DNA of 64,000 bases from an uncultured Alphaproteobacteria bacterium (GCA_934229625.1 CAKQDU010000001.1:83078-147077); one strand, 5' to 3'. Positions 9,761-64,000 are shown, counted from the first letter of the stretch. Translations and numbers: made by a program. Notes: generated by a model from the letters alone, not told the origin.

Positions 9761-10396
9761 TCAAAATTCTAATGATATATTACAATACGCGTTGGAGCTT
9801 TCACAAATTTTACAAGCCTCGTGAATTTCTTCCAATGAGGCTTGGGCAACGCATTTTATTTTCTCGTTGCAATAACTATCGCCATAAAACCATATACTTC
9901 TTCCGGTACCCCAAGCTGATGTTCTAACCGCAAAAACGACAGAGTGTAAAGGTTGTCCGAGATTTTGAAAAATAGAAACACATAGTTTGCTTGAAAAAGC
10001 CGGTGAAAAAAAGGTATCTTTTTTTGAAACTCCTCCGATGTAAAAATTTATTACTAATCTGTTATTGCGAGAAAATATATCAATCAAATTATTTTGACCA
10101 TCTTTTAAACTTTTCCAACCTTCATCATTGATAATCCAAGTTTGCGGTACTAAATTTGCAGCTTGTACATAATCATAAACAGGAACCATAGTATTATCGG
10201 AACTGAGATATTTAAGGTCATTAAGGTGTTCAAGCAATCCATAAATTAAGTAACTGTATTCTTCAATGAGTTTATTGCTTTTATATTTTTCCATGGCTTT
10301 GGAGTAACCGGCAATCCCACCGACGCTTAGTACAGCGATTATAGCAAGTACGCCGAGCATTTCTATCATGGAACGGCCTATTTGATTATATTTCAT
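9761..10396 (-). CDS. type IVb-like prepilin paralog P1 (short leader MKYNQIG, then RSMIEMLGVLAII...)
   Basis: Class III signal peptide with Glu at +5 and hydrophobic alpha1 helix. Conserved EYSYLIYGLLEHL. C-terminal FYGDxxC...CxxC...C motif. RBS AAGGAAG. Confidence 0.7.
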   Translation of the reverse strand: MKYNQIGRSMIEMLGVLAIIAVLSVGGIAGYSKAMEKYKSNKLIEEYSYLIYGLLEHLNDLKYLSSDNTMVPVYDYVQAANLVPQTWIINDEGWKSLKDGQNNLIDIFSRNNRLVINFYIGGVSKKDTFFSPAFSSKLCVSIFQNLGQPLHSVVFAVRTSAWGTGRSIWFYGDSYCNEKIKCVAQASLEEIHEACKICESSNAYCNISLEF

Positions 10397-13680: not shown

Positions 13681-13695
13681 TTGAGGAGGAATAAG

Positions 13696-14424
13696 ATGTT
13701 TGATGGTATAGAATTTTTCAAAGGAAAGAGCAGAGGTGAGGGTTCTGGAGTGCTTTGCGTTGCTCGCAATGACGTTTGCTCTGCCGGTCGGTCAATGATA
13801 GAAATGCTCGGCGTATTGGCAATTGTCGGCGTGTTAAGCGTTGGCGGCATCGCCGGCTACTCCAAAGCGATGGAAAAGTTTAAGCTTAGTAAGGCTCTGG
13901 ATGAATACAGCTATCTTATTTATGGGTTGCTGGAACACTTAGATGAAATTAAATATTCCACTAAATCAGGAGATGGAAATGCTACTCCTGTTGTGGAATT
14001 AGCTAACAATTTGAATTTGGTTCCTCCGACATGGACAATGATAGCAAACAATCTTGATGTTCGTCATAAAAATTTATTTGAAGACCCATATAACAATCTT
14101 TTATCTATTTACTCAAAAGACGGAAATTTGCGTTTTGATTTTATTTTAGGCGGTTCGCAATTTCCGGACGAAGGCTCTTGGATAACTGAAAATTTTTCAA
14201 CCAAATTCTGTATGGAATTGGTAAACAATGTTGTCAAACCATTGCATTCTTCTTTGGAATTTTTATTTTTTTACAGGTCAAAAGGAAGCTCATCCACTTT
14301 TTATGGTGATAAAAAGTGTTCTTCCGGCCGCAAATGTTTGAGTGATATCAGTATAAAAGAAGTGTATGATAATTGCAAACGTTGCTCAAAAAAAGAAGTT
14401 TGTTCCGTAACTATAGACTTTTAA
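13696..14424 (+). CDS. type IVb-like prepilin paralog P2 with 31-aa leader
   Basis: Strong SD GAGGAGGA before the ATG at 13696. Leader ends ...CSAG then RSMIEMLGVLAIVGVLSVGG. Conserved EYSYLIYGLLEHL and the C-terminal 5-Cys motif ending TIDF. Confidence 0.7.
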   Translation: MFDGIEFFKGKSRGEGSGVLCVARNDVCSAGRSMIEMLGVLAIVGVLSVGGIAGYSKAMEKFKLSKALDEYSYLIYGLLEHLDEIKYSTKSGDGNATPVVELANNLNLVPPTWTMIANNLDVRHKNLFEDPYNNLLSIYSKDGNLRFDFILGGSQFPDEGSWITENFSTKFCMELVNNVVKPLHSSLEFLFFYRSKGSSSTFYGDKKCSSGRKCLSDISIKEVYDNCKRCSKKEVCSVTIDF

Positions 14425-37471: not shown

Positions 37472-38119
37472 ATGAATAAAAATGTTAAAAACAGGCAGTG
37501 CAGCGGTCGCTCAATGATAGAAATGCTGGGGGTACTATCTATCATCGGCGTGCTGAGTGTCGGCGGTATTGCCGGTTATTCCAAAGCTATGCTGAATTAT
37601 AAATTAAATAAATCTGTCGAAGCACATCGCGATGTTATATTTGGTCTAGTTCATTATAAAGATAGGCTAAAACCGGCAGAAGGTCAGAATTTAATCAATG
37701 AAGAAGTGGCATCTTTAGGACTTAAACCTAATAATTGGCGCAAAGATGGTGTTTATCTGATTGATGATATGAATAACACGATATTTATTGGTATTTATGG
37801 CGATGATAAACATATAGGATATGAAATCAGAATGCCTGCCAGAACGATTTCTCATAATGCAGATGGAAAAGTAGTGCAAAGCTATCCTTATAATTTTTGC
37901 GTGACAGCTATTAAACAACTGATTATTCCGTTGTCGGAAATGATTGAGGAATTTTCTTTTTATAGAACTAAAAGCGGTTGGGATTCTTTTTATGGCAGTA
38001 AATTTTGTGGTAAAGATTGCAAATGCATAAGTCAAATAAATGTTTCTCAGATGTTCGCCGAATGCCAGACTTGCGGTAAATCTGACGGTGAAGGTTGTTC
38101 AATTATCTTAAAATTTTAA
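37472..38119 (+). CDS. type IVb-like prepilin paralog P3 (12-aa leader)
   Basis: MNKNVKNRQCSG then RSMIEMLGVLSIIGVLSVGGIAGYSKAM. C-terminal FYGSKFCGKDCKC...CQTCGKSDGEGCSIILKF. RBS AGGAGG. Confidence 0.65.
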   Translation: MNKNVKNRQCSGRSMIEMLGVLSIIGVLSVGGIAGYSKAMLNYKLNKSVEAHRDVIFGLVHYKDRLKPAEGQNLINEEVASLGLKPNNWRKDGVYLIDDMNNTIFIGIYGDDKHIGYEIRMPARTISHNADGKVVQSYPYNFCVTAIKQLIIPLSEMIEEFSFYRTKSGWDSFYGSKFCGKDCKCISQINVSQMFAECQTCGKSDGEGCSIILKF

Positions 38120-54340: not shown

Positions 54341-55063
54341 TTATTTAAATTCAAAACTTACGTCGCAGTCGGTATTTTTCTTGTCACAGGAAGCGCAAAC
54401 TTCCTGAAAATCTTTTAATGTAGCCGTAGGTAAACATTTTTCTCCGTCTTGACAATACTTTGCTCCATAAAAATATATGTTATGCGACCCCTGCCACGAC
54501 CTTGCCAAATAAATTTCAGAGGACAAAGGCATAGCTATATTCTTAAACAACTCCAAACAAAAATCTTCTGCAAATCCTTCTGTAGTGGTTACATTATCAG
54601 CACTTTTAGTAAAACCGCCGATTTTTATGCTTACTGAAACAGCGCCTTTTCTAGTATATGGATAAACAATATTACCGAAAGTGTCATAAAAGGTATTGGT
54701 TGATTTTGTATAACTATCTGGTAACAACCCCAACGCATAAACGGTGTCTGCCAATGGTATTTGCCTAACCTGTTCATCTGATTTTAAGCTATCCAAATGC
54801 TCCAGAAGTCCGGCAAAAAACATAGAGTATTCTCCGATTGTCTTGTTCATTTTCCACATTCTCATTGCTTTGCTATAGCCTGCAATACCGGCAACGGACA
54901 GAACACCGACAATCGCCAGCACGCCGAGCATTTCTATCATACTCCGCCCAGCTGAAACCGCGTATAGCTGCGCTTCTAAAGCAGTTTTACGCTGTCTCAA
55001 AAAATTTATGTATTCCCCATATACACTAGGATTTTTTGTATTTTCTTTTAATTTATCAGACAT
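54341..55063 (-). CDS. type IVb-like prepilin paralog P4 (39-aa leader)
   Basis: AGGAG SD before the Met at 55063. ...AVSAG then RSMIEMLGVLAIVGVLSVAGIAGYSKAM. C-terminal FYGAKYCQDGEKC...CASCDKKNTDCDVSFEFK. Confidence 0.65.
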   Translation of the reverse strand: MSDKLKENTKNPSVYGEYINFLRQRKTALEAQLYAVSAGRSMIEMLGVLAIVGVLSVAGIAGYSKAMRMWKMNKTIGEYSMFFAGLLEHLDSLKSDEQVRQIPLADTVYALGLLPDSYTKSTNTFYDTFGNIVYPYTRKGAVSVSIKIGGFTKSADNVTTTEGFAEDFCLELFKNIAMPLSSEIYLARSWQGSHNIYFYGAKYCQDGEKCLPTATLKDFQEVCASCDKKNTDCDVSFEFK

Positions 55064-55407
55064 ATATTGAACTCCTAAAAAATTACAGAAAAACCGCTTA
55101 AAATAAGCGGTCGGAGAGTTCAACAATCATATCTGCTTAAATGATTCTTTTAGCCTTTAAAGCCATATTGTGTCAGAGATATATTATACAGCTTTTGAAC
55201 ATACGCTAAAAGCTCCCCGACCATATTGCTATGTATCGGGGATATATTTAGCTATCGGCAATAATCAAACCGCCGATAATTTAACGATGTTATATCCTAA
55301 CACCGAAGCAGATAAGAGCCGTTGAAAGCTCCGCGCTAACCGCGCTTGTTTTAATATATAAAGAAATAAAATAAAAAGCAAACAAATTCTTATGGGATAA
55401 AATTTTA

Positions 55408-55863: not shown

Positions 55864-56937
55864 TTATTCCACTTTTCGTAAAAACTCGTTAAAAAATTCA
55901 TTAATCAGCCACTCGTTATTTTTTTCATCAGTCCGCAAAGCCTTAGCCACAAATGAGCGTAAATTATTTTTCAGCCCGCTTATTCTAAATGATTTCGGCG
56001 CGGCGCGCTCTGCCCCAACCACGCCATCCAGCAGCAAATCATCGTCAACCAGCGGTGACAAAATTATCTCAATTCTTGTAAACTTCAAAATTCCGCGCGG
56101 TGGCAAACGCAATTCCGGCTTAGTTATCAGGTTCAAATGCCCTGCTATTCCCTGAATAGAATACATTTGGTTATAATCCAAAAACCGCACTTTATTATTA
56201 ACGCCGCCATAATTTTCGGTAGTGCAAGTAAGATAAAGCTCGCTGGCAATCACATTGCTTTCATTTTTACAAAATACATCAAACGAAACTTTGACATATT
56301 TGTGCACTGCTTTGCCTTTTTTACTTTTCAAATAAAGAATTTCAGCTTCATCATTCTGCACAATTTCCAGCTTGCGGTTTTCTATCATCAGTTCCACATT
56401 AGGCTGTGGTTGGCGTCCAAACATTCCGGCAATCACCGAATATGGAGCCGGCACATTGTTTGAACCCGAACGAATGTAAATATGGCTGCCGATTGTTGTC
56501 ATCAGCGGAGCCAAATCGGATTTTGGAATATATGTTGCCAAATAGCCGTCACCATTTTTATCGCAAGCAATTATGTGGTTGCGCACTTTATTATGACTTG
56601 GAATAGTGCAGCCGGAGATGGCGTTTTCTACCCAGCTCATAAAACGATGCACATTGTGAACTTTGACTTTGCTTTTCGCCACATCACCGACTTCACAGTC
56701 GCGAGAACATTCAACACCCCAAATAATCACTCCGCCTTCGGAATTGCCAAAACCGGATATACACTTAGAAAGATTGCGCCTATCGTCACTACACAGAGCC
56801 TGACCATGCTTGCCGGTAGAAGCCGCCTGCTTAAAATCCAAAAACAACTCCTCTGTCTGCCGCTCGCGGATAAATTCATCAAGCGCGTCTTCGCCAAAAT
56901 AAACCAGCTTTTCAAATATATCTTCAGCTCTTGACAT
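55864..56937 (-). CDS. AlbA_2 (Schlafen-like putative DNA-binding) domain protein
   Basis: N-terminal EELFLDFKQ...LSKCISGFGNSEGGVIIWGVE matches the AlbA_2 pattern. 357 aa. Its stop abuts the rnhA start. Confidence 0.6.
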   Translation of the reverse strand: MSRAEDIFEKLVYFGEDALDEFIRERQTEELFLDFKQAASTGKHGQALCSDDRRNLSKCISGFGNSEGGVIIWGVECSRDCEVGDVAKSKVKVHNVHRFMSWVENAISGCTIPSHNKVRNHIIACDKNGDGYLATYIPKSDLAPLMTTIGSHIYIRSGSNNVPAPYSVIAGMFGRQPQPNVELMIENRKLEIVQNDEAEILYLKSKKGKAVHKYVKVSFDVFCKNESNVIASELYLTCTTENYGGVNNKVRFLDYNQMYSIQGIAGHLNLITKPELRLPPRGILKFTRIEIILSPLVDDDLLLDGVVGAERAAPKSFRISGLKNNLRSFVAKALRTDEKNNEWLINEFFNEFLRKVE

Positions 56938-56986
56938 GGCGGCATCTCCTGTTGTTGCATTTATGGCTTATAATATCACAGTCCGC

Positions 56987-58249
56987 TTAAAAACGCAAAT
57001 ACTTCTCTACAATATCATAGCTAGGATAGTCATGCAGATTGCCCAAAAGCGTATAAGTCGGCTTACTGGCAAACAAACGCCTCGCCACACGCTGAATATC
57101 ATCTTTATTGATAGCGTTGATTTTTTCCACAATTTCTTCAACCGGAATCACGCGGTTATACAAAAGATGCTGACGGGCGATAACTTCGGCTGTGGAAGAA
57201 GAACTTTCCAAAGCCATCAGCATACTTGCCTTGAGCTGAACTTTCACCCGTTCCAATTCTTTGTCGGTCACATATTCATTAACAACTTTTTTCAGCTCAT
57301 CAGCCACCACCGGAACATATTGCTTGATTTCTTCTTCATTCAAACCGGCGTAAATACCAAACATACCGCTGCCGGTGTGTGCGTTGGCAAAGCTGTATAC
57401 CGTATAAACCAAACCGCGCTTTTCTCTAATTTCTTGGAACAAACGCGAAGACATGCTGCCGCCCAGCAAGGTTGAAAGCACAGTTACCGGATAATAGTCC
57501 GCATCGTTATACGGCACTCCCTCAAAGCCAAGCAAAACCTGAGCTTGTTCAATATCACGGGTTTTGATAGATGAACCTCCGGTATAATGCTGCGCGTCTT
57601 TAACATAGTCTGTTTTTTCACGCAAACCAGACATACGGTCCTCCACCATTTTAACAAATTCATCATGGTTCAAATTACCGACAGCGGCAACCACCATATT
57701 TTCGGCGGCGTAGTTGTGTTTCATATAATCATGCAGCTTATCGGCATTAAATGAGCGGACTTTTTCCGCCGGACCAAGAATACTGCGCCCCAAAGCCTGA
57801 TTAGCAAAGGCTGTTTCTTGAAAATAGTCATAAACAATATCGCTTGGGTCATCGTTAGTCTGTTTGATTTCCTGCACCACGACTTCTTTTTCTTTTGCCA
57901 GTTCGGCAGCGTCAAAAGTCGGCGCCATAATCAAATCCGACAACACGTCAGCAGCCAATTCTACGTCATTTTTCAGCATTTTAGCATAAAAAGCCGTAAA
58001 TTCGCGCGAAGTATAAGCATTGGTTTGACCGCCAACATTTTCGATATCTTCGGAAATTTGCAAAGAGTTACGTTTTTTTGTACCTTTAAACACGGTATGT
58101 TCAACAAAATGCGAAATTCCGTTTCTTTCCAGCGTTTCGCAAGCGCTTCCAGTGTTTACCCAAATACCCAAAGAAACAGTTTCAGTCTGCGGACGTTCAA
58201 CAGAGGCAACTCGCAAACCGTTTTTTAACGTTGTTAATTTAACTTCCAT
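56987..58249 (-). CDS. M16-family zinc metallopeptidase (pitrilysin/MPP-like)
   Basis: HFVEHTVFKGT inverted zincin motif, 420 aa. Confidence 0.85.
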   Translation of the reverse strand: MEVKLTTLKNGLRVASVERPQTETVSLGIWVNTGSACETLERNGISHFVEHTVFKGTKKRNSLQISEDIENVGGQTNAYTSREFTAFYAKMLKNDVELAADVLSDLIMAPTFDAAELAKEKEVVVQEIKQTNDDPSDIVYDYFQETAFANQALGRSILGPAEKVRSFNADKLHDYMKHNYAAENMVVAAVGNLNHDEFVKMVEDRMSGLREKTDYVKDAQHYTGGSSIKTRDIEQAQVLLGFEGVPYNDADYYPVTVLSTLLGGSMSSRLFQEIREKRGLVYTVYSFANAHTGSGMFGIYAGLNEEEIKQYVPVVADELKKVVNEYVTDKELERVKVQLKASMLMALESSSSTAEVIARQHLLYNRVIPVEEIVEKINAINKDDIQRVARRLFASKPTYTLLGNLHDYPSYDIVEKYLRF

Positions 58250-58342
58250 AAAAAATCTTGCCTTATTCTAAAAAATTACATATGACAGTATTATATTGTC
58301 TGATTAGGATAAATCAACATAAAACTTATAAGGGGGTATATA

Positions 58343-59020
58343 ATGGGGAAAAAATTACATTTTGCCGTTGTGCTTTCAGGCTGTGGCCGTGCTGATGGCT
58401 CGGAAATTCACGAAGCGGTCTGTGCCTTGCTTTGCATAGAGAATATGGGTTGCACCTATCAATGCTTTGCGCCGGATATTGACCAAGCGGCGGTGGTTAA
58501 TCATCTAAACAACCAAGCGATGAATGAAAAACGCAATGTTTTGGTGGAATCTGCTCGCATTGCCCGCGGCAATATTTTAGATTTAAAGGCATTTAACACC
58601 AAAGATTTTGACGCCATTATCTTCCCCGGCGGACTCGGCGCTGTCACCAACTGGTGCGATTTTGCCGGACGCGGGGTTTCCTGCAATATCAACACCAGCG
58701 TAAAGCAGGTTATCCGCAAATGCTGGGAAGACAAAGTCGTTATCGGCGCAATGTGCATCGCTCCGGTTTTGATTGCTTTGGTTTTGGCCGACAAACACGT
58801 TAAATTCACGCTCGGCGCCGGCGGCGATACCGCCCAAAAGCTGGAAGAACTCGGCGCGATTCACGAAGAAGTAGGCGTTTCCGATGTTTGTGTAGACCGC
58901 GAAAATCTGGTTTGCAGCACTCCGGCATATATGCTTGCTACAAATATGCTTGACGTTTGTCAAGGCGCGCAAAATATGGTCGGGGCAATCTGTCAGCTTT
59001 TAGAAGAGCAAAGAAACTGA
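58343..59020 (+). CDS. elbB: DJ-1/PfpI-family ElbB-like protein (glyoxalase / isoprenoid biosynthesis protein)
   Basis: MGKKLHFAVVLSGCGRADGSEIHE N-terminus and IIFPGGLGA are typical of ElbB. Confidence 0.75.
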   Translation: MGKKLHFAVVLSGCGRADGSEIHEAVCALLCIENMGCTYQCFAPDIDQAAVVNHLNNQAMNEKRNVLVESARIARGNILDLKAFNTKDFDAIIFPGGLGAVTNWCDFAGRGVSCNINTSVKQVIRKCWEDKVVIGAMCIAPVLIALVLADKHVKFTLGAGGDTAQKLEELGAIHEEVGVSDVCVDRENLVCSTPAYMLATNMLDVCQGAQNMVGAICQLLEEQRN

Positions 59021-59025
59021 CATAA

Positions 59026-59730
59026 TCACAACGGAAAACGGATAGTTATACAGCATACTCCTGAAGCATCGCAATGTTCACAGGCCGATTTTATTTGAGC
59101 CAAAGTAGCATTGCTTAAACACATACGCCCGTTTGAGCAATAAGCATCGCCATAAAATGTTATATCGCCTTTAGTTGAATTAAAAGTGTTTATTGAATAA
59201 ACAGCGGAATGCAGTGGCGTCATAATATTGTTAAACATCTCAACGCAAAGCTTCGATGAAAAGTTTGCGGATATCTTGCTGTCTGCGGTTTCTTGCCAGC
59301 CGCCTAAATAAAAATCCAGAAGCAAAACATTGCCGCCGCTATAAGACTGCACAATATTGCCGCTGTTATCCCACATTGCCTTATTATCTTCGGCTGTCCA
59401 GCTGGACGGAACAATATTTGTGGCGCGGGCAAAGTCTGTGAAATTAAATTTTCCCATACCGACCGGAACACTTTTTAAATCATCTATATGCTCCAGCAGA
59501 CCATATATAAGATAGCTATATTCGCTGATAGTTTTATTAAGTTTGAACTTTTCCATCGCTTTGGAGTAGCCGGCAATGCCTCCGACCGAAAGAACTCCGA
59601 CAATAGCAAGCACGCCCAGCATTTCTATCATTGACCGACCGGCTGAACAAATGTCATTGCGAGCAACGCGAAGCAATCCAGAACCCTCGCCCCTGCTCTG
59701 TTCTCTTAAAAATTCTATACTCTTAAACAT
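59026..59730 (-). CDS. type IVb-like prepilin paralog P5 (31-aa leader)
   Basis: GAGGAGGA SD before the Met at 59730. Leader and first ~85 residues nearly identical to P2. C-terminal FYGDAYCSNGRMC...CEHCDASGVCCITIRFPL. Confidence 0.7.
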   Translation of the reverse strand: MFKSIEFLREQSRGEGSGLLRVARNDICSAGRSMIEMLGVLAIVGVLSVGGIAGYSKAMEKFKLNKTISEYSYLIYGLLEHIDDLKSVPVGMGKFNFTDFARATNIVPSSWTAEDNKAMWDNSGNIVQSYSGGNVLLLDFYLGGWQETADSKISANFSSKLCVEMFNNIMTPLHSAVYSINTFNSTKGDITFYGDAYCSNGRMCLSNATLAQIKSACEHCDASGVCCITIRFPL

Positions 59731-59745
59731 CTTGTTCCTCCTCAA

Positions 59746-59923
59746 TTGTGTAAAAAAAACGACCGTTATTTTTACACACTCAGAATAAGACGCTGATAAT
59801 TCTTACAAAACCACAAAAAACATCGCAAATATAAAAAGTTATTGCAAATTCCGGCAACCTTTGCTAGACTACAAAAAACAGCCTAAAAACTGTCCATTTT
59901 AAACGGTCGTTTTTTTTACACAC
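59746..59923 (-). repeat. second copy of the 178-bp inverted-repeat-bounded upstream element (reverse complement of 13503-13680)
   Basis: Base-by-base comparison. One substitution noted. Confidence 0.8.
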
Positions 59924-60084: not shown

Positions 60085-61524
60085 ATGAAAAACAGAACCA
60101 GATTTGCGCCAAGTCCTACCGGCTACATGCATATCGGCAACTTGCGTACAGCTTTATATGAATATTTGATTGCCAAGTCTGCGGACGGCGATTTTATTCT
60201 ACGCATTGAAGACACCGACCAAAAACGCTATGTTGAAGGTGCTACTGATATTATATTTAAAACCCTGAAACGCGTTGGCATGAATTGGGATGAAGGTCCG
60301 GATATCGGCGGCGAATTTGGTCCATATATACAATCAGAACGCCGCGGAATTTATCAGGAATATGCCCATAAATTAGTTGAGCTTAGGGGCGCGCATTATT
60401 GTTTCTGCGCTCAAAAAGAAGAAAACGAAGATGTTGATGAAGACACTCCTGAAGCTCATATAAAATTCAAAGACCCTTGCTTGAAAATTTCTTTAGAAGA
60501 AGCTAAAAAACGTGTTGCCGCCGGTGAGCCTTATACCATCCGCCAAACCATAAATAAAAAAGGGACTTCCATTTTTCATGACGTGGTTTATGGCGATATT
60601 GAAATTGATTATGACGAGCTTGACGAAGGAGTGTTGCTAAAATCTGACGGATTGCCTACCTATAATTTTGCCAATGTGGTGGATGACCATTTGATGCAGA
60701 TAACTCATGTTGTGCGCGGTAATGAATATATTTCTTCCACCCCTAAATATAACTTGATTTACGAGGCTTTCGGCTGGACACCGCCGATTTATGTGCATGT
60801 TCCGCCGGTTATGAAAGACGCTCAGCACAAATTAAGCAAACGCAACGGCGACGCCTCTTTCCAAGATTTGGTGGCTAAAGGCTATTTGCCGGAAGCTATT
60901 TTGAACTATATCGCCCTACTCGGCTGGAATCCAGGAACAGAACAAGAAATCTTTTCTTTAGAAGAGCTTAAACAATGTTTTTCAAGTGAAAGATTAAATA
61001 AATCTCCTGCTATTTTTGATATTACTAAACTTACATGGATGAATGGTTGCTATATCCGCAATCTTTCAGCCGAGGATTTTCATAGGCTGGCTTTGCCATA
61101 TTATAAAGATTTAGAAAATAAAAATATAGATTTATTCTTTTTAAGCAAAGTGTTACAGCCGCGTATTGAAGTTTTAAATCAGATTACAGAACAAACAGAT
61201 TTCTTAGCAAAAATGCCGGAATATGATGTGTCTTTGTATGAAAATAAAAAAATGAAAACTAATTCGGAAATTGCCGCTAAAGCTTTGCAAATTGTTTTGC
61301 CGATTTTGGAAAATGTTACAGATTGGACTAACGAAAATTTGTTTAACACCCTAAAAGAAACGGCCGTTGCCAATGAAATGAAAAACGGACAAATTCTTTA
61401 TCCGGTGCGCATTGCCCTTTCCGGCAAAGAAACCACACCTGGCGGTGCAACCGAATTAGCTCATGTTTTGGGAAAAGCCGAAACTTTACTGAGAATTTCC
61501 GAAGCTATTAAAAAACTGTCTTAA
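60085..61524 (+). CDS. gltX: glutamate--tRNA ligase
   Basis: TRFAPSPTGYMHIGNLRTAL (HIGH) and KLSKRNG (KMSKS), 479 aa. Confidence 0.9.
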   Translation: MKNRTRFAPSPTGYMHIGNLRTALYEYLIAKSADGDFILRIEDTDQKRYVEGATDIIFKTLKRVGMNWDEGPDIGGEFGPYIQSERRGIYQEYAHKLVELRGAHYCFCAQKEENEDVDEDTPEAHIKFKDPCLKISLEEAKKRVAAGEPYTIRQTINKKGTSIFHDVVYGDIEIDYDELDEGVLLKSDGLPTYNFANVVDDHLMQITHVVRGNEYISSTPKYNLIYEAFGWTPPIYVHVPPVMKDAQHKLSKRNGDASFQDLVAKGYLPEAILNYIALLGWNPGTEQEIFSLEELKQCFSSERLNKSPAIFDITKLTWMNGCYIRNLSAEDFHRLALPYYKDLENKNIDLFFLSKVLQPRIEVLNQITEQTDFLAKMPEYDVSLYENKKMKTNSEIAAKALQIVLPILENVTDWTNENLFNTLKETAVANEMKNGQILYPVRIALSGKETTPGGATELAHVLGKAETLLRISEAIKKLS

Positions 61525-61549
61525 ACACATACCTATAAGGAGTTAAATT

Positions 61550-62365
61550 ATGCCCGATTTGCATATGAAAAAATCTACGAACCGAGTAAAACATTATAGC
61601 TGGTTTGGCTATCTTATTTGCATTCTCGGAGTATCATTCTATTTCTTCCCCGAATATCCTTTACGCTTGTTCTTTCAGCAAACTATCGGCAAAGAAGATA
61701 ACGAAAAGTTGACAATAAACAAAACTGAAAACTTTAACGTTGCAGACAAAAAAATCATTGAGTTAAAAAGGAATAAAAAGAATTATAAGCTTATTCCTCA
61801 TGCGCAATATTCAATCACAGCCAAAGTCGGATACGCTCATCCCTATGATGATATTGTTAAAAACACTATAGACAAGCTTTTAAAAAAGAAGAACAAAGAC
61901 GTCAAAGATACTAATTTAACAACAGCAAACCTGTTTTTATTATGGGGGGAAATGGCAAAATCAGACGTGTTCTCTTTATTTAACTATAAGCACAAGTCCG
62001 GAACAGGTTATTTGCTTTGCAAAGGCGTATCATATGAGAAATCATTTGCTGCTTCTTTTGCAACTCAGGCTTCCAAAAAAGAGCAAGAAAAATATAATCT
62101 TTGTAATGCCTATTCTTTAACAGGTACTTTCAATAATTATCGCATCATACCTGCCAACGAGCGTATAAACAAAGCCGTACACACTCTGATGAAAGGCGAT
62201 ATTATTCATATTGAGGGATATTTGGTAGACGTGCCTCAGCTTGAAATAACAACTGCTTATAAAGCAAATAAAAAGAATAATGGACTGTTAGAGGGAGCAA
62301 ACCTCAATCAGCATTATTACTTGTATACGACTAAAATCATCAGCGATGGTTTTATATACAAATAA
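61550..62365 (+). CDS. hypothetical membrane-anchored protein, tandem paralog 1
   Basis: 271 aa, N-terminal TM. Collinear similarity with 62397-63206 (PEYPxR, SxxAKxGY, GYxxCKGVxYxxSF, NNYxxIPANExxNK, IxIEGYLVxV, YTTKII). RBS AGGAG. Confidence 0.5.
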   Translation: MPDLHMKKSTNRVKHYSWFGYLICILGVSFYFFPEYPLRLFFQQTIGKEDNEKLTINKTENFNVADKKIIELKRNKKNYKLIPHAQYSITAKVGYAHPYDDIVKNTIDKLLKKKNKDVKDTNLTTANLFLLWGEMAKSDVFSLFNYKHKSGTGYLLCKGVSYEKSFAASFATQASKKEQEKYNLCNAYSLTGTFNNYRIIPANERINKAVHTLMKGDIIHIEGYLVDVPQLEITTAYKANKKNNGLLEGANLNQHYYLYTTKIISDGFIYK

Positions 62366-62396
62366 AAATTAGGCTCTGAGCCTGCTGGAGCAAACC

Positions 62397-63206
62397 ATGC
62401 CCGATATTTACTCAATACGCTATTTTAAGAATAGACGTCAAAAAAGTAAGACTTATATTGTATGTATTGTGCTTGGTTTGCTTATGTTTTTATATCCTGA
62501 ATATCCAAAGCGTATGTTTTATCCGTTTTTATTCGGACAAAAGACAAATGAAAAATTAGAGATTTCTCAAGATGCTTATTACGAAGATTTGAATACTGCT
62601 CCGATTACGTTTGTCCGCAATAATATAAAATACATCTTATATCCGCAAACAAAATACAGCGTATCCGCCAAAATCGGATACGTTGACTCTTATGACACGA
62701 TTCTAAACAAAATCTACCGCGGTCACAGCCAAAGCGATTACATAAACTTAGCGCCTATTGATTTATTTATGATTTACGGCGATATGGCAAAACCAGAAAT
62801 CTATAAATTGTTTGAATTTGACCACGAAGAACGAACTGGTTATATCAAATGTAAAGGCGTAAAATACAAGGAATCCTTTTTCTCATTTTACCTTTCTGAC
62901 TCTGAACGTGAAAAAAGTGAAAGAAATTTGGCAGTCTGCAATCCGCATATAAACGAAAATCAATTCAATAACTATCACCCTATTCCGGCCAATGAAAATG
63001 TTAACAAGGGTCTGCATACACTGCTTGCCGGAGATACAATTTATATAGAAGGCTATCTTGTAAATGTAAAAGCGCCAAATTTCACTTTAGCCACAGGTAC
63101 GCGCACCAATCAACATCACCCTTTTGTGATGAACGGAGAAAACCCTGGAATGTGTTTTATTATCTACACCACTAAAATTATTGTTAACGGTTACGTCTAT
63201 CAATAA
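62397..63206 (+). CDS. hypothetical membrane-anchored protein, tandem paralog 2
   Basis: 269 aa, same architecture as 61550-62365. Confidence 0.5.
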   Translation: MPDIYSIRYFKNRRQKSKTYIVCIVLGLLMFLYPEYPKRMFYPFLFGQKTNEKLEISQDAYYEDLNTAPITFVRNNIKYILYPQTKYSVSAKIGYVDSYDTILNKIYRGHSQSDYINLAPIDLFMIYGDMAKPEIYKLFEFDHEERTGYIKCKGVKYKESFFSFYLSDSEREKSERNLAVCNPHINENQFNNYHPIPANENVNKGLHTLLAGDTIYIEGYLVNVKAPNFTLATGTRTNQHHPFVMNGENPGMCFIIYTTKIIVNGYVYQ

Positions 63207-63218
63207 AAGGAGAATTTC

Positions 63219-63824
63219 ATGAAAATAATCTCAGTTTTCTTGATTATATTATTATTAAGCCATCCGGCATTTGCTAAAAAATGGAATTGGGTGCCGCGCC
63301 GAACTCAAAACAACATTATGGAAACTCAAACCTCATCGGAGTCTTTTTCTGACAGCTCAGAAAAAAAAGTTTCTGAGGAAGAAAACACTGAAGAAGAAAT
63401 AAATAGTCTGATTTTTTTCAGCAAAGAAGAATTTAACAAAGCCGACATCAACAACGATGGTAAAATCAGCGAAGATGAATTTCTATTGTTTCAGGAACAA
63501 GACTTCGGCAAAATTGCTGCTAAAAATTTTATAGAATTTGACCTTAATAAAGATAAAAAAATAAGCCGGGAGGAAATTTATACTCACCTCAAACAAAATG
63601 AAGATTTTTCTGAAGATGAACAATCTGTTACTAAAAACTTTATTGACGCGGATATTGACGGCGATGATTTTTTGGACGAAAATGAATTTAAGCACTATCA
63701 GCAAACATCGCTTTTAAGCAACAATAAAGCTATTTTCAGACTATTTGACGCCGACGGAGACGGGGTTATAACCTATGAAGATGTGGAACAAATTTTGAAA
63801 ACTTTTCAAAGTCTTACGGATTAA
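63219..63824 (+). CDS. secreted EF-hand calcium-binding protein
   Basis: Signal peptide. Four DxDxDG-type loops (DINNDGKISEDEF, DLNKDKKISREE, DIDGDDFLDENEF, DADGDGVITYEDV). RBS AAGGAG. Confidence 0.65.
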   Translation: MKIISVFLIILLLSHPAFAKKWNWVPRRTQNNIMETQTSSESFSDSSEKKVSEEENTEEEINSLIFFSKEEFNKADINNDGKISEDEFLLFQEQDFGKIAAKNFIEFDLNKDKKISREEIYTHLKQNEDFSEDEQSVTKNFIDADIDGDDFLDENEFKHYQQTSLLSNNKAIFRLFDADGDGVITYEDVEQILKTFQSLTD

Positions 63825-64000
63825 CCAAGTTCCAAAGCCTGATAGCAGCGCTCTGATAGTGACATTTCATCTAAAACCAACTGATTTAATTCTGCCACTT
63901 TTTCATCTTCTATATTCAAAAATTTACTTACTTTGATAACAAAATCTATCTCGCTATCGTCCAAATCTTCATCTGAATTTGCAACGGTCAGCAATTCTTT
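63821..64000 (-). CDS. 3' end of a gene continuing beyond the window (acidic helical C-terminus)
   Basis: Open frame on the minus strand from the window edge to TAA at 63821-63823. Translation ...VANSDEDLDDSEIDFVIKVSKFLNIEDEKVAELNQLVLDEMSLSERCYQALELG. Confidence 0.35.
   Translation of the reverse strand, partial: KELLTVANSDEDLDDSEIDFVIKVSKFLNIEDEKVAELNQLVLDEMSLSERCYQALELG

Follow-up and report, generated by a model that had tools for sequence, protein, structure and literature searches.

A large un-named family of predicted envelope proteins with a near-invariant Asp-Arg-His-Cys signature, and a site-ablated paralog beside one member, behind gltX in a gut alphaproteobacterium

We analyzed a 64,000-nucleotide stretch of DNA (hereafter the window) from an uncultured Alphaproteobacteria bacterium (GCA_934229625.1, CAKQDU010000001.1:83078-147077), and in particular three consecutive genes that it carries on the plus strand: the paralogs A (61550-62365; 271 amino acids [aa]) and B (62397-63206; 269 aa), and a gene for an exported protein with four EF-hand loops (63219-63824; 201 aa). 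These three genes lie at the 3' end of a string of genes headed by gltX in a gut-associated alphaproteobacterium. B, probably the ancestral gene of the pair, is the single-copy member that this lineage has of a large family without a name, and it keeps an Asp-Arg-His-Cys site intact; A is a maintained copy that has lost that site. The best overall explanation, to which we give a probability of about 0.55, is that the conserved cluster of B is a functional site, that A is a partner of B and that the EF-hand protein is an accessory. Coordinates below count from the first letter of the window and refer to the plus strand unless marked otherwise.

A and B align end to end in BLASTP with 37% identity and 60% positives (E = 1e-62), and the motifs CKGV, NNYxxIPANE, IEGYLVxV and YTTKII all fall within the alignment, in agreement with an earlier note on this DNA that had described the two genes as tandem duplicates. 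That note had also found no recognizable family for these putative membrane-anchored proteins, and this holds in curated libraries: no model in Pfam, NCBIfam, PHROGs or PADLOC matched A, B or any of 10-16 distant relatives above threshold, a profile built from 47 B-type sequences had no match at E <= 10 among PDB sequences, and all source names obtained for family members, distant ones included, read 'hypothetical protein'. The note had staked its proposal on the absence of a known periplasmic enzyme family for A and B and on the EF-hand protein not being widely conserved; neither paralog matched a known enzyme family, and the EF-hand protein is narrowly distributed. Searched against 1.84 billion cluster representatives (50% identity clusters), the 47-sequence profile matched 1,539 proteins, most of them 200-300 aa long, at E <= 1e-3, and 385 of these at E <= 1e-10; B thus belongs to a family that is large and un-named.

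The family is defined most sharply by four polar residues. Asp122 of B (codon 62760-62762) is kept in 236 of 238 diverse members, Arg146 (62832-62834) in 226, His194 (62976-62978) in 235 and Cys253 (63153-63155) in 231, with Ser in its place in two; Gly219 is also near-invariant (236/238). The pattern D-R-(N/H)-H-G-C occurs in 224 of 239 family sequences, and a separate alignment of 68 sequences shows no variation at D, R, H and C. One unrelated member, P0176, has independently lost the D, the R and the C. The gut alphaproteobacterial subfamily to which B belongs adds conserved H143, E144, E145, C152, C181, H241 and M252, of which C152 and C181 sit in an insertion that is not present in distant members. 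A lone invariant Cys in an exported protein, in the company of His, Asp and Arg, points to either a thiol nucleophile or a site for a metal or other ligand.

Structure prediction, which the earlier note had proposed for the paralogs, gave a confident AlphaFold2 model of B (predicted local distance difference test [pLDDT] 90.2, predicted template modeling score [pTM] 0.83) with an anchor helix and an OB-like barrel. Both this model and that of a minimal 212-aa lipoprotein member of the family (pLDDT 94.4) begin with a helix at the N-terminus and continue in a beta-barrel into which further helices are inserted, and the modeled barrel conforms to the OB fold, taken as a five-stranded closed beta-barrel superimposable on known OB domains. 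The predicted architecture of the family is thus an N-terminal signal anchor (a lipoprotein signal in some members) and an extracytoplasmic domain of about 200 aa, in which an OB-fold barrel carries extra helices and strands; B has all of the defining features, namely the N-terminal anchor, the OB-like barrel, and D122, R146, H194, G219 and C253. A K/R-rich start followed by a hydrophobic segment is found in 198 of 239 members and a lipobox in 22 of 239. In B the predicted signal-anchor helix spans residues 19-33 (62451-62495; residues 18-32 in the AlphaFold2 model), with six K/R among the first 20 residues; that of A (residues 17-33, 61598-61648) aligns with it and likewise is hydrophobic after a K/R-rich N-terminus. 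Because the K/R-rich N-terminus precedes the hydrophobic helix, the barrel of B is predicted to be anchored and extracytoplasmic.

The Asp/Arg/His/Cys cluster of B would be a functional site, most likely that of a thiol-dependent enzyme acting on an envelope substrate, although the same site might bind a metal or other ligand instead. A rival account, possible but clearly the weaker of the two, makes the site non-catalytic throughout, with B a tethered periplasmic chaperone or receptor like CusF or CcmE that binds metal, heme or glycan. Binding is the classical role of the OB fold; metals are typically coordinated by residues such as Cys, His and Asp; H143, E144, E145, H241 and M252 of the alphaproteobacterial subfamily would add to them; and DsbD adjoins B in four species. 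The heme motif of CcmE has a CxxxY variant, which C253-x3-Y257 of B formally resembles. B has no sequence relationship to the envelope OB-fold proteins CcmE, CusF, YgiW/BOF, Bacillus subtilis YobA (4qy7) or PilY2 (3tdq), its domain of about 200 aa is twice as large as the roughly 90 aa aligned in proteins of those types, and its invariant D-R-H-C site is not common to their families. When B was held against the definition of the CcmE heme chaperone itself (PF03100; an OB barrel of about 100 aa whose flexible C-terminal tail bears H/CxxxY), it did not conform.

Extracytoplasmic Cys/His enzymes with a membrane anchor and a beta-barrel include the sortases and the L,D-transpeptidases, and B is like them in its N-terminal anchor, its extracytoplasmic beta-barrel of similar size, and its single invariant Cys with His and Arg. 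This resemblance is best taken as functional analogy only: B does not conform to the sortase definition (a match to PF04203, a sortase barrel and the order His...Cys(TLxTC)...Arg), and it has no Pfam match to the L,D-transpeptidase domain YkuD (PF03734), whose HxxxxxxxxxxxxxxSxGCxR motif is not in the B-type alignment.

Paralog A keeps the frame of the family and has replaced its site. Of 50 positions whose conservation among the other members reaches 90% or more, it retains 31, mostly the hydrophobic core and the Cys152/Cys181 pair. At the site it carries D122N, R146G/A, H194R and C253H, and it has further lost R108, Q112, Y115, P120, E144, E145, H241 and G251; the substitutions are identical or near-identical across its three orthologs. 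By the test that B passes, A, with N, G, R and H/Y at the four positions, is thus a homolog by sequence that is not site-competent. Two family genes occur only in the window species and in loci L008 and L013; a single gene is present in the remaining 39 species loci and in every distant contig sampled. The B genes of the three species form one clade in a neighbor-joining tree, and a single tandem duplication in the common ancestor of these three sister species is the most parsimonious account of the distribution, with B probably the ancestral gene and A a young duplicate.

The ratio of nonsynonymous to synonymous substitution rates (dN/dS) for A is 0.053 between L013 and L008, at an unsaturated synonymous divergence (dS) of 0.16, and about 0.06 against the window; by this low ratio A is a maintained, site-ablated paralog under strong purifying selection and not a pseudogene. 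That A is a decaying duplicate without function is therefore very improbable in our judgment: the loss of all the family's invariant polar residues and the long branch would fit it, but the 271-codon open reading frame (ORF) of A runs unbroken in three species, its core residues and the Cys152/Cys181 pair are kept, it has a Shine-Dalgarno sequence of its own, and 34 near-identical intact variants were found across many samples. Lacking the invariant site residues, A would be unable to perform the chemistry of B, and by analogy with known dead paralogs it may serve as a non-catalytic partner or regulator of B, or may have taken on a new binding role. Among bacteria, the degenerate LytM factors EnvC and NlpD are such dead-paralog partners. 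The AdoMetDC prozyme is a catalytically dead paralog that partners an active enzyme (PMC5201418). A is like all three in that the fold is kept and the site residues are lost under purifying selection beside an intact copy; the A/B pair differs in that the activity of B and its interaction with A are here only inferred.

The EF-hand protein is more readily placed. Pfam EF-hand_1 matches it four times along its length (E = 9.6e-19; 65.9 bits, cut-off 25.4), and the domain-pair model EF-hand_7 reaches 55.7 bits (cut-off 30). The loops begin at residues 76 (63444-63479, DINNDGKISEDE), 108 (63540-63575, DLNKDKKISREE), 145 (63651-63686, DIDGDDFLDENE) and 177 (63747-63782, DADGDGVITYED); spaced by 32, 37 and 32 residues, they form two EF-hand pairs, and each agrees with the canonical 12-residue loop D-x-[DNS]-x-[DNSG]-x-x-[ILV]-x-x-x-[ED] flanked by helices (PF00036/PF13499). 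They lie behind a Sec-type signal peptide (residues 1-19, 63219-63275; MKIISVFLIILLLSHPAFA, followed by KK) with cleavage after AFA. The earlier note's reading of a signal-peptide protein with four canonical EF-hand loops was therefore correct. An ortholog cluster of 15 loci has the gene directly 3' of B in every one, with the same 12-nucleotide (nt) spacer as the window in ten other loci, and in all 15 proteins a signal peptide precedes four loops whose positions correspond; an A-x-A site, then (Q/K)KWNW at the mature N-terminus, and a variable acidic linker are found in most of them. A sequence search with the protein found only eight clusters, all of at least 60% identity. The protein would bind or buffer Ca2+ in the periplasm and may tune B, with B not dependent on it.

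The same note had called this protein rare in bacteria and eukaryote-like, a description that comparison does not support. Periplasmic, Sec-exported EF-hand proteins are documented in Caulobacter (CaBP, PMC13171946), itself an alphaproteobacterium, and among periplasmic EF-hand proteins more broadly there are EfhP of Pseudomonas (PMC4053335, PMC9132961) and, as cited in PMC4053335, the Rhizobium calsymin CasA. As in these, a Sec signal or anchor here places canonical EF-hand loops in a proteobacterial periplasm, in a protein that is small, acidic and without an enzymatic domain. It differs in having four loops, compared with three in CaBP (PMC13171946) and two in EfhP (PMC4053335, PMC9132961), and in its conserved (Q/K)KWNW, its variable acidic linker and its lineage-specific fixed place after B; no sequence relation to the three beyond the motif was detected, the homolog search having found only the close relatives mentioned above. 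The gene has a G+C content ordinary for the window and 15 positional orthologs, and its PDB matches (Entamoeba CaBP, calcineurin B and calmodulin, 28-39 bits) are similarity at the level of the motif. It is a lineage-specific accessory gene for what is, by sequence, an ordinary bacterial periplasmic calcium-binding protein.

Two more specific assignments were tried and rejected. Proline at position 2 of the EF loop is characteristic of lanmodulin; the four loops here have I, L, I and A at that position, without Pro, and the LanM model (NF053806) scores 23.3 bits against a cut-off of 135. The resemblance consists in the periplasmic location and the four EF-hand loops, lanmodulin being the periplasmic four-EF-hand protein of Methylobacterium that binds lanthanides (PMC9260416). 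The type III effector XopAW (NF041410) matched at 32.9 bits against a cut-off of 120, and the protein has a Sec signal with no type III secretion system genes nearby. This weak XopAW match in NCBIfam, and the fact that the lineage inhabits animal guts, are what can be said for a eukaryote-like effector exported to the host, in the manner of XopAW or through a type I or type IV secretion system. We think such an effector highly unlikely: the XopAW score is far under its cut-off, the signal peptide is of the classical Sec type in 15 of 15 orthologs, no secretion-system genes were seen beside the gene, the eukaryotic similarity is confined to the EF-hand motif, and the chromosomal position is fixed across the clade, which points to vertical inheritance. 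For the type I or type IV secretion that the earlier note had entertained, the Sec signal peptide makes such a route unnecessary.

Several points weigh against the reading in which B carries a functional site, A is its partner and the EF-hand protein is accessory to them. For A, the neighbor-joining tree places it at the base on a long branch, not beside its B. We attribute this position to long-branch attraction, a probable acceleration of rate in A, because the best non-self matches of A are B genes of the same gltX-linked clade and because the MPD(L/I) N-terminus is common to A and that clade; we judged the placement uninformative and preferred the distribution argument for the history of the duplication, but an older origin or a transfer of A is also possible. 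For B, the spatial clustering of D122, R146, H194 and C253 is assumed, the searches gave no OB-fold enzyme with a Cys/His site, so that the enzyme reading is here without structural precedent, and six contigs of distant family members show no common neighborhood theme. For the EF-hand gene, 7 of the 23 gltX-linked loci do not have it (L015, L018, L019, L020, L023, L025 and L044; in the first four B abuts TerB directly), nor does any lineage in which B lies away from gltX, and its link to B may be co-transcription and nothing else.

The last point can be carried further, to the view that the EF-hand gene is functionally unrelated to A and B and shares an operon tail behind gltX with them only through insertion at a permissive site. 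We hold this to be a tenable but minority explanation. B is without an EF-hand gene in most lineages as well as in the gltX-linked loci just listed, the region to the right of gltX is a recombination mosaic, and gltX has no evident functional tie to envelope proteins; against this, the EF-hand gene is always directly 3' of B in its 15 loci, across B identities from 52% to 100%, the spacer is identical in ten of those 15, and there is no copy of the gene elsewhere in the DNA examined.

The layout of the locus is compact. All of the ORFs given in the earlier note were found at their coordinates, with gltX (glutamate--tRNA ligase; 60085-61524; TIGR00464, E = 3.9e-143) adjoining A on its 5' side. 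The gaps are 25 nt between gltX and A, 31 nt between A and B, and 12 nt between B and the EF-hand gene, and each of the three genes has AAGGAG or GGAG about 7 nt 5' of its ATG (for A, AAGGAG at 61538-61543 by direct reading), so the ribosome binding sites that the note had assigned to each gene are present. Its proposal of a single transcript is compatible with the tight 12-31 nt spacing and with the 12-nt spacer conserved at the other loci; what changes is the extent of the unit, gltX being most likely in the same transcript as A, B and the EF-hand gene. No terminator-like site was found on the plus strand between 61500 and 63824. A perfect palindrome, AGGCTCTGAGCCT, lies in the A-B spacer at 62371-62383; no plus-strand T-run follows it, so it is no obvious terminator. 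Downstream, a convergent TerB-like gene (63821-64000, minus strand; its 3' part, cut by the end of the window) marks the end of the transcription unit, its stop codon overlapping that of the EF-hand gene by 4 nt. In full it encodes 142 aa with a weak PF05099 match (identical contig L001, 11425-11853), and it is kept downstream of the block in 17 related loci. Beyond it, RuvX, TolB and ThyA follow in the window species, in an order not common to other species. Rfam, tRNA and tandem-repeat scans of the window gave nothing that bears on the A/B/EF-hand block.

When one genome for each GTDB species was scanned with a sequence pattern, 42 loci with a B family gene emerged, from gut and rumen. Of these, 37 are labeled Alphaproteobacteria, proteobacteria, Pseudomonadota or Rhodospirillaceae and come from humans (Hadza, Nepal), rumen (roe deer, yak, sheep and reindeer) and horse feces; five are labeled as other taxa. 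Identical copies of B occur on many ENA and Logan gut-metagenome contigs of up to 306 kb. The gltX cluster bears the NCBI name 'Alphaproteobacteria bacterium', and at the level of order the lineage may be the RF32-type gut group. GTDB-representative contigs L008, L009, L015, L018 and L049, filed in Bacteroidaceae, Eubacteriales, [Ruminococcus] gnavus and Clostridia bins, carry the alphaproteobacterial locus; gltX of the first four is 93-94% identical to that of the window, and L049 (1.8 kb) was assigned through its B, EF-hand and TerB matches. They look like mis-binned contigs in public metagenome-assembled genomes.

B follows gltX in 23 loci, and in the 22 with both genes callable the next gene is 13-32 nt away, abutting or overlapping. 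In eight other gut alphaproteobacterial species (L030, L032-L036, L046 and L047) B instead stands directly behind the gene of an HtpX-type M48 membrane protease, at -11 to +4 nt, which points to translational coupling; apart from gltX, this is the tightest recurrent association of the family. It follows an outer-membrane beta-barrel gene behind an ABC transporter in three species, and the four species with DsbD nearby also have a periplasmic cyclophilin gene there. Taken together the HtpX, outer-membrane and DsbD neighbors make a loose envelope theme and no more. A, B and the EF-hand gene are accordingly not the fixed module that the earlier note's grouping had implied: A is confined to three species, the EF-hand gene is missing from part of the gltX-linked loci, and B stands elsewhere behind other genes. 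Two members of a distant subfamily (P0258 and P0291; about 253-263 aa; 'HEYR...GLCKQ' type) lie divergent beside glgB and glgX in L054 and L055, two independent long gut contigs, an adjacency that is probably due to shared ancestry.

The block has a mosaic history. Compared with the sister genomes L013 and L011, the window is 98-100% identical in nucleotides up to the end of gltX (61524-61550) and about 70% identical from exactly there on; dS is 0.09-0.47 for M16, ElbB and gltX, and A, B, the EF-hand gene and TerB have values that exceed 1.2 or are saturated, the step at the gltX/A boundary being from 0.09-0.18 to above 1.2. L013 compared with L008 gives the reverse mosaic in amino-acid identity (gltX 94%, A 98%, B 81%, EF-hand protein 95%), and dS along B ranges from 0.13 to 1.74, indicating that B itself is mosaic. 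The block has therefore been reshuffled by recombination. Positive selection on B, suggested by an identity of 99% for gltX against 71% for B, was considered and rejected: dS shows mainly the recombination mosaic, and no segment of B has a dN/dS above 0.37.

In strain L002, gltX, A, B and the EF-hand gene are 100% identical to those of the window and the left flank differs (compared with window positions 56000-59800), where PFOR, M16_C and ArsP_2 proteins are encoded and the pilin-like gene is just 48% identical; replacement between strains thus reaches the upstream side of gltX as well. The window holds five dispersed pilin-like paralogs, at 9761-10396 (minus), 13681-14424 (plus), 37472-38119 (plus), 54341-55126 (minus) and 59026-59745 (minus), with 32-52% mutual identity, a prepilin-type N-terminus (G|RSMIEMLGVLAI...) and weak N_methyl/TIGR02532 matches; the copy beside gltX varies among close relatives, from 39% to 97% identity, or is absent.

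A bolder form of the preferred reading would make B the type of a new class of OB-fold extracytoplasmic Cys-His-Asp(-Arg) thiol enzymes, widespread in uncultured bacteria, with A as a dead partner and the EF-hand protein as a Ca2+ sensor that gates the activity. We think it improbable as a whole, though if true A, B and the EF-hand protein would form a calcium-regulated envelope-remodeling module. At its more sober strength, the locus is a modest lead on an unstudied protein family and not a eukaryote-like module, and the EF-hand protein is ordinary. Through B a family comes into view that counts at least 1,500 clusters at 50% identity, for which neither Pfam nor NCBIfam has a model and which lacks annotation and a solved structure, although its fold is predicted with confidence; its near-invariant Asp-Arg-His-Cys signature is a starting point from which the family, and perhaps an envelope activity not described before, could be defined. 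A, standing beside an intact B with every site residue replaced and selection still acting, is a natural experiment within that family, and the A/B pair represents an uncharacterized family worth a Pfam entry.

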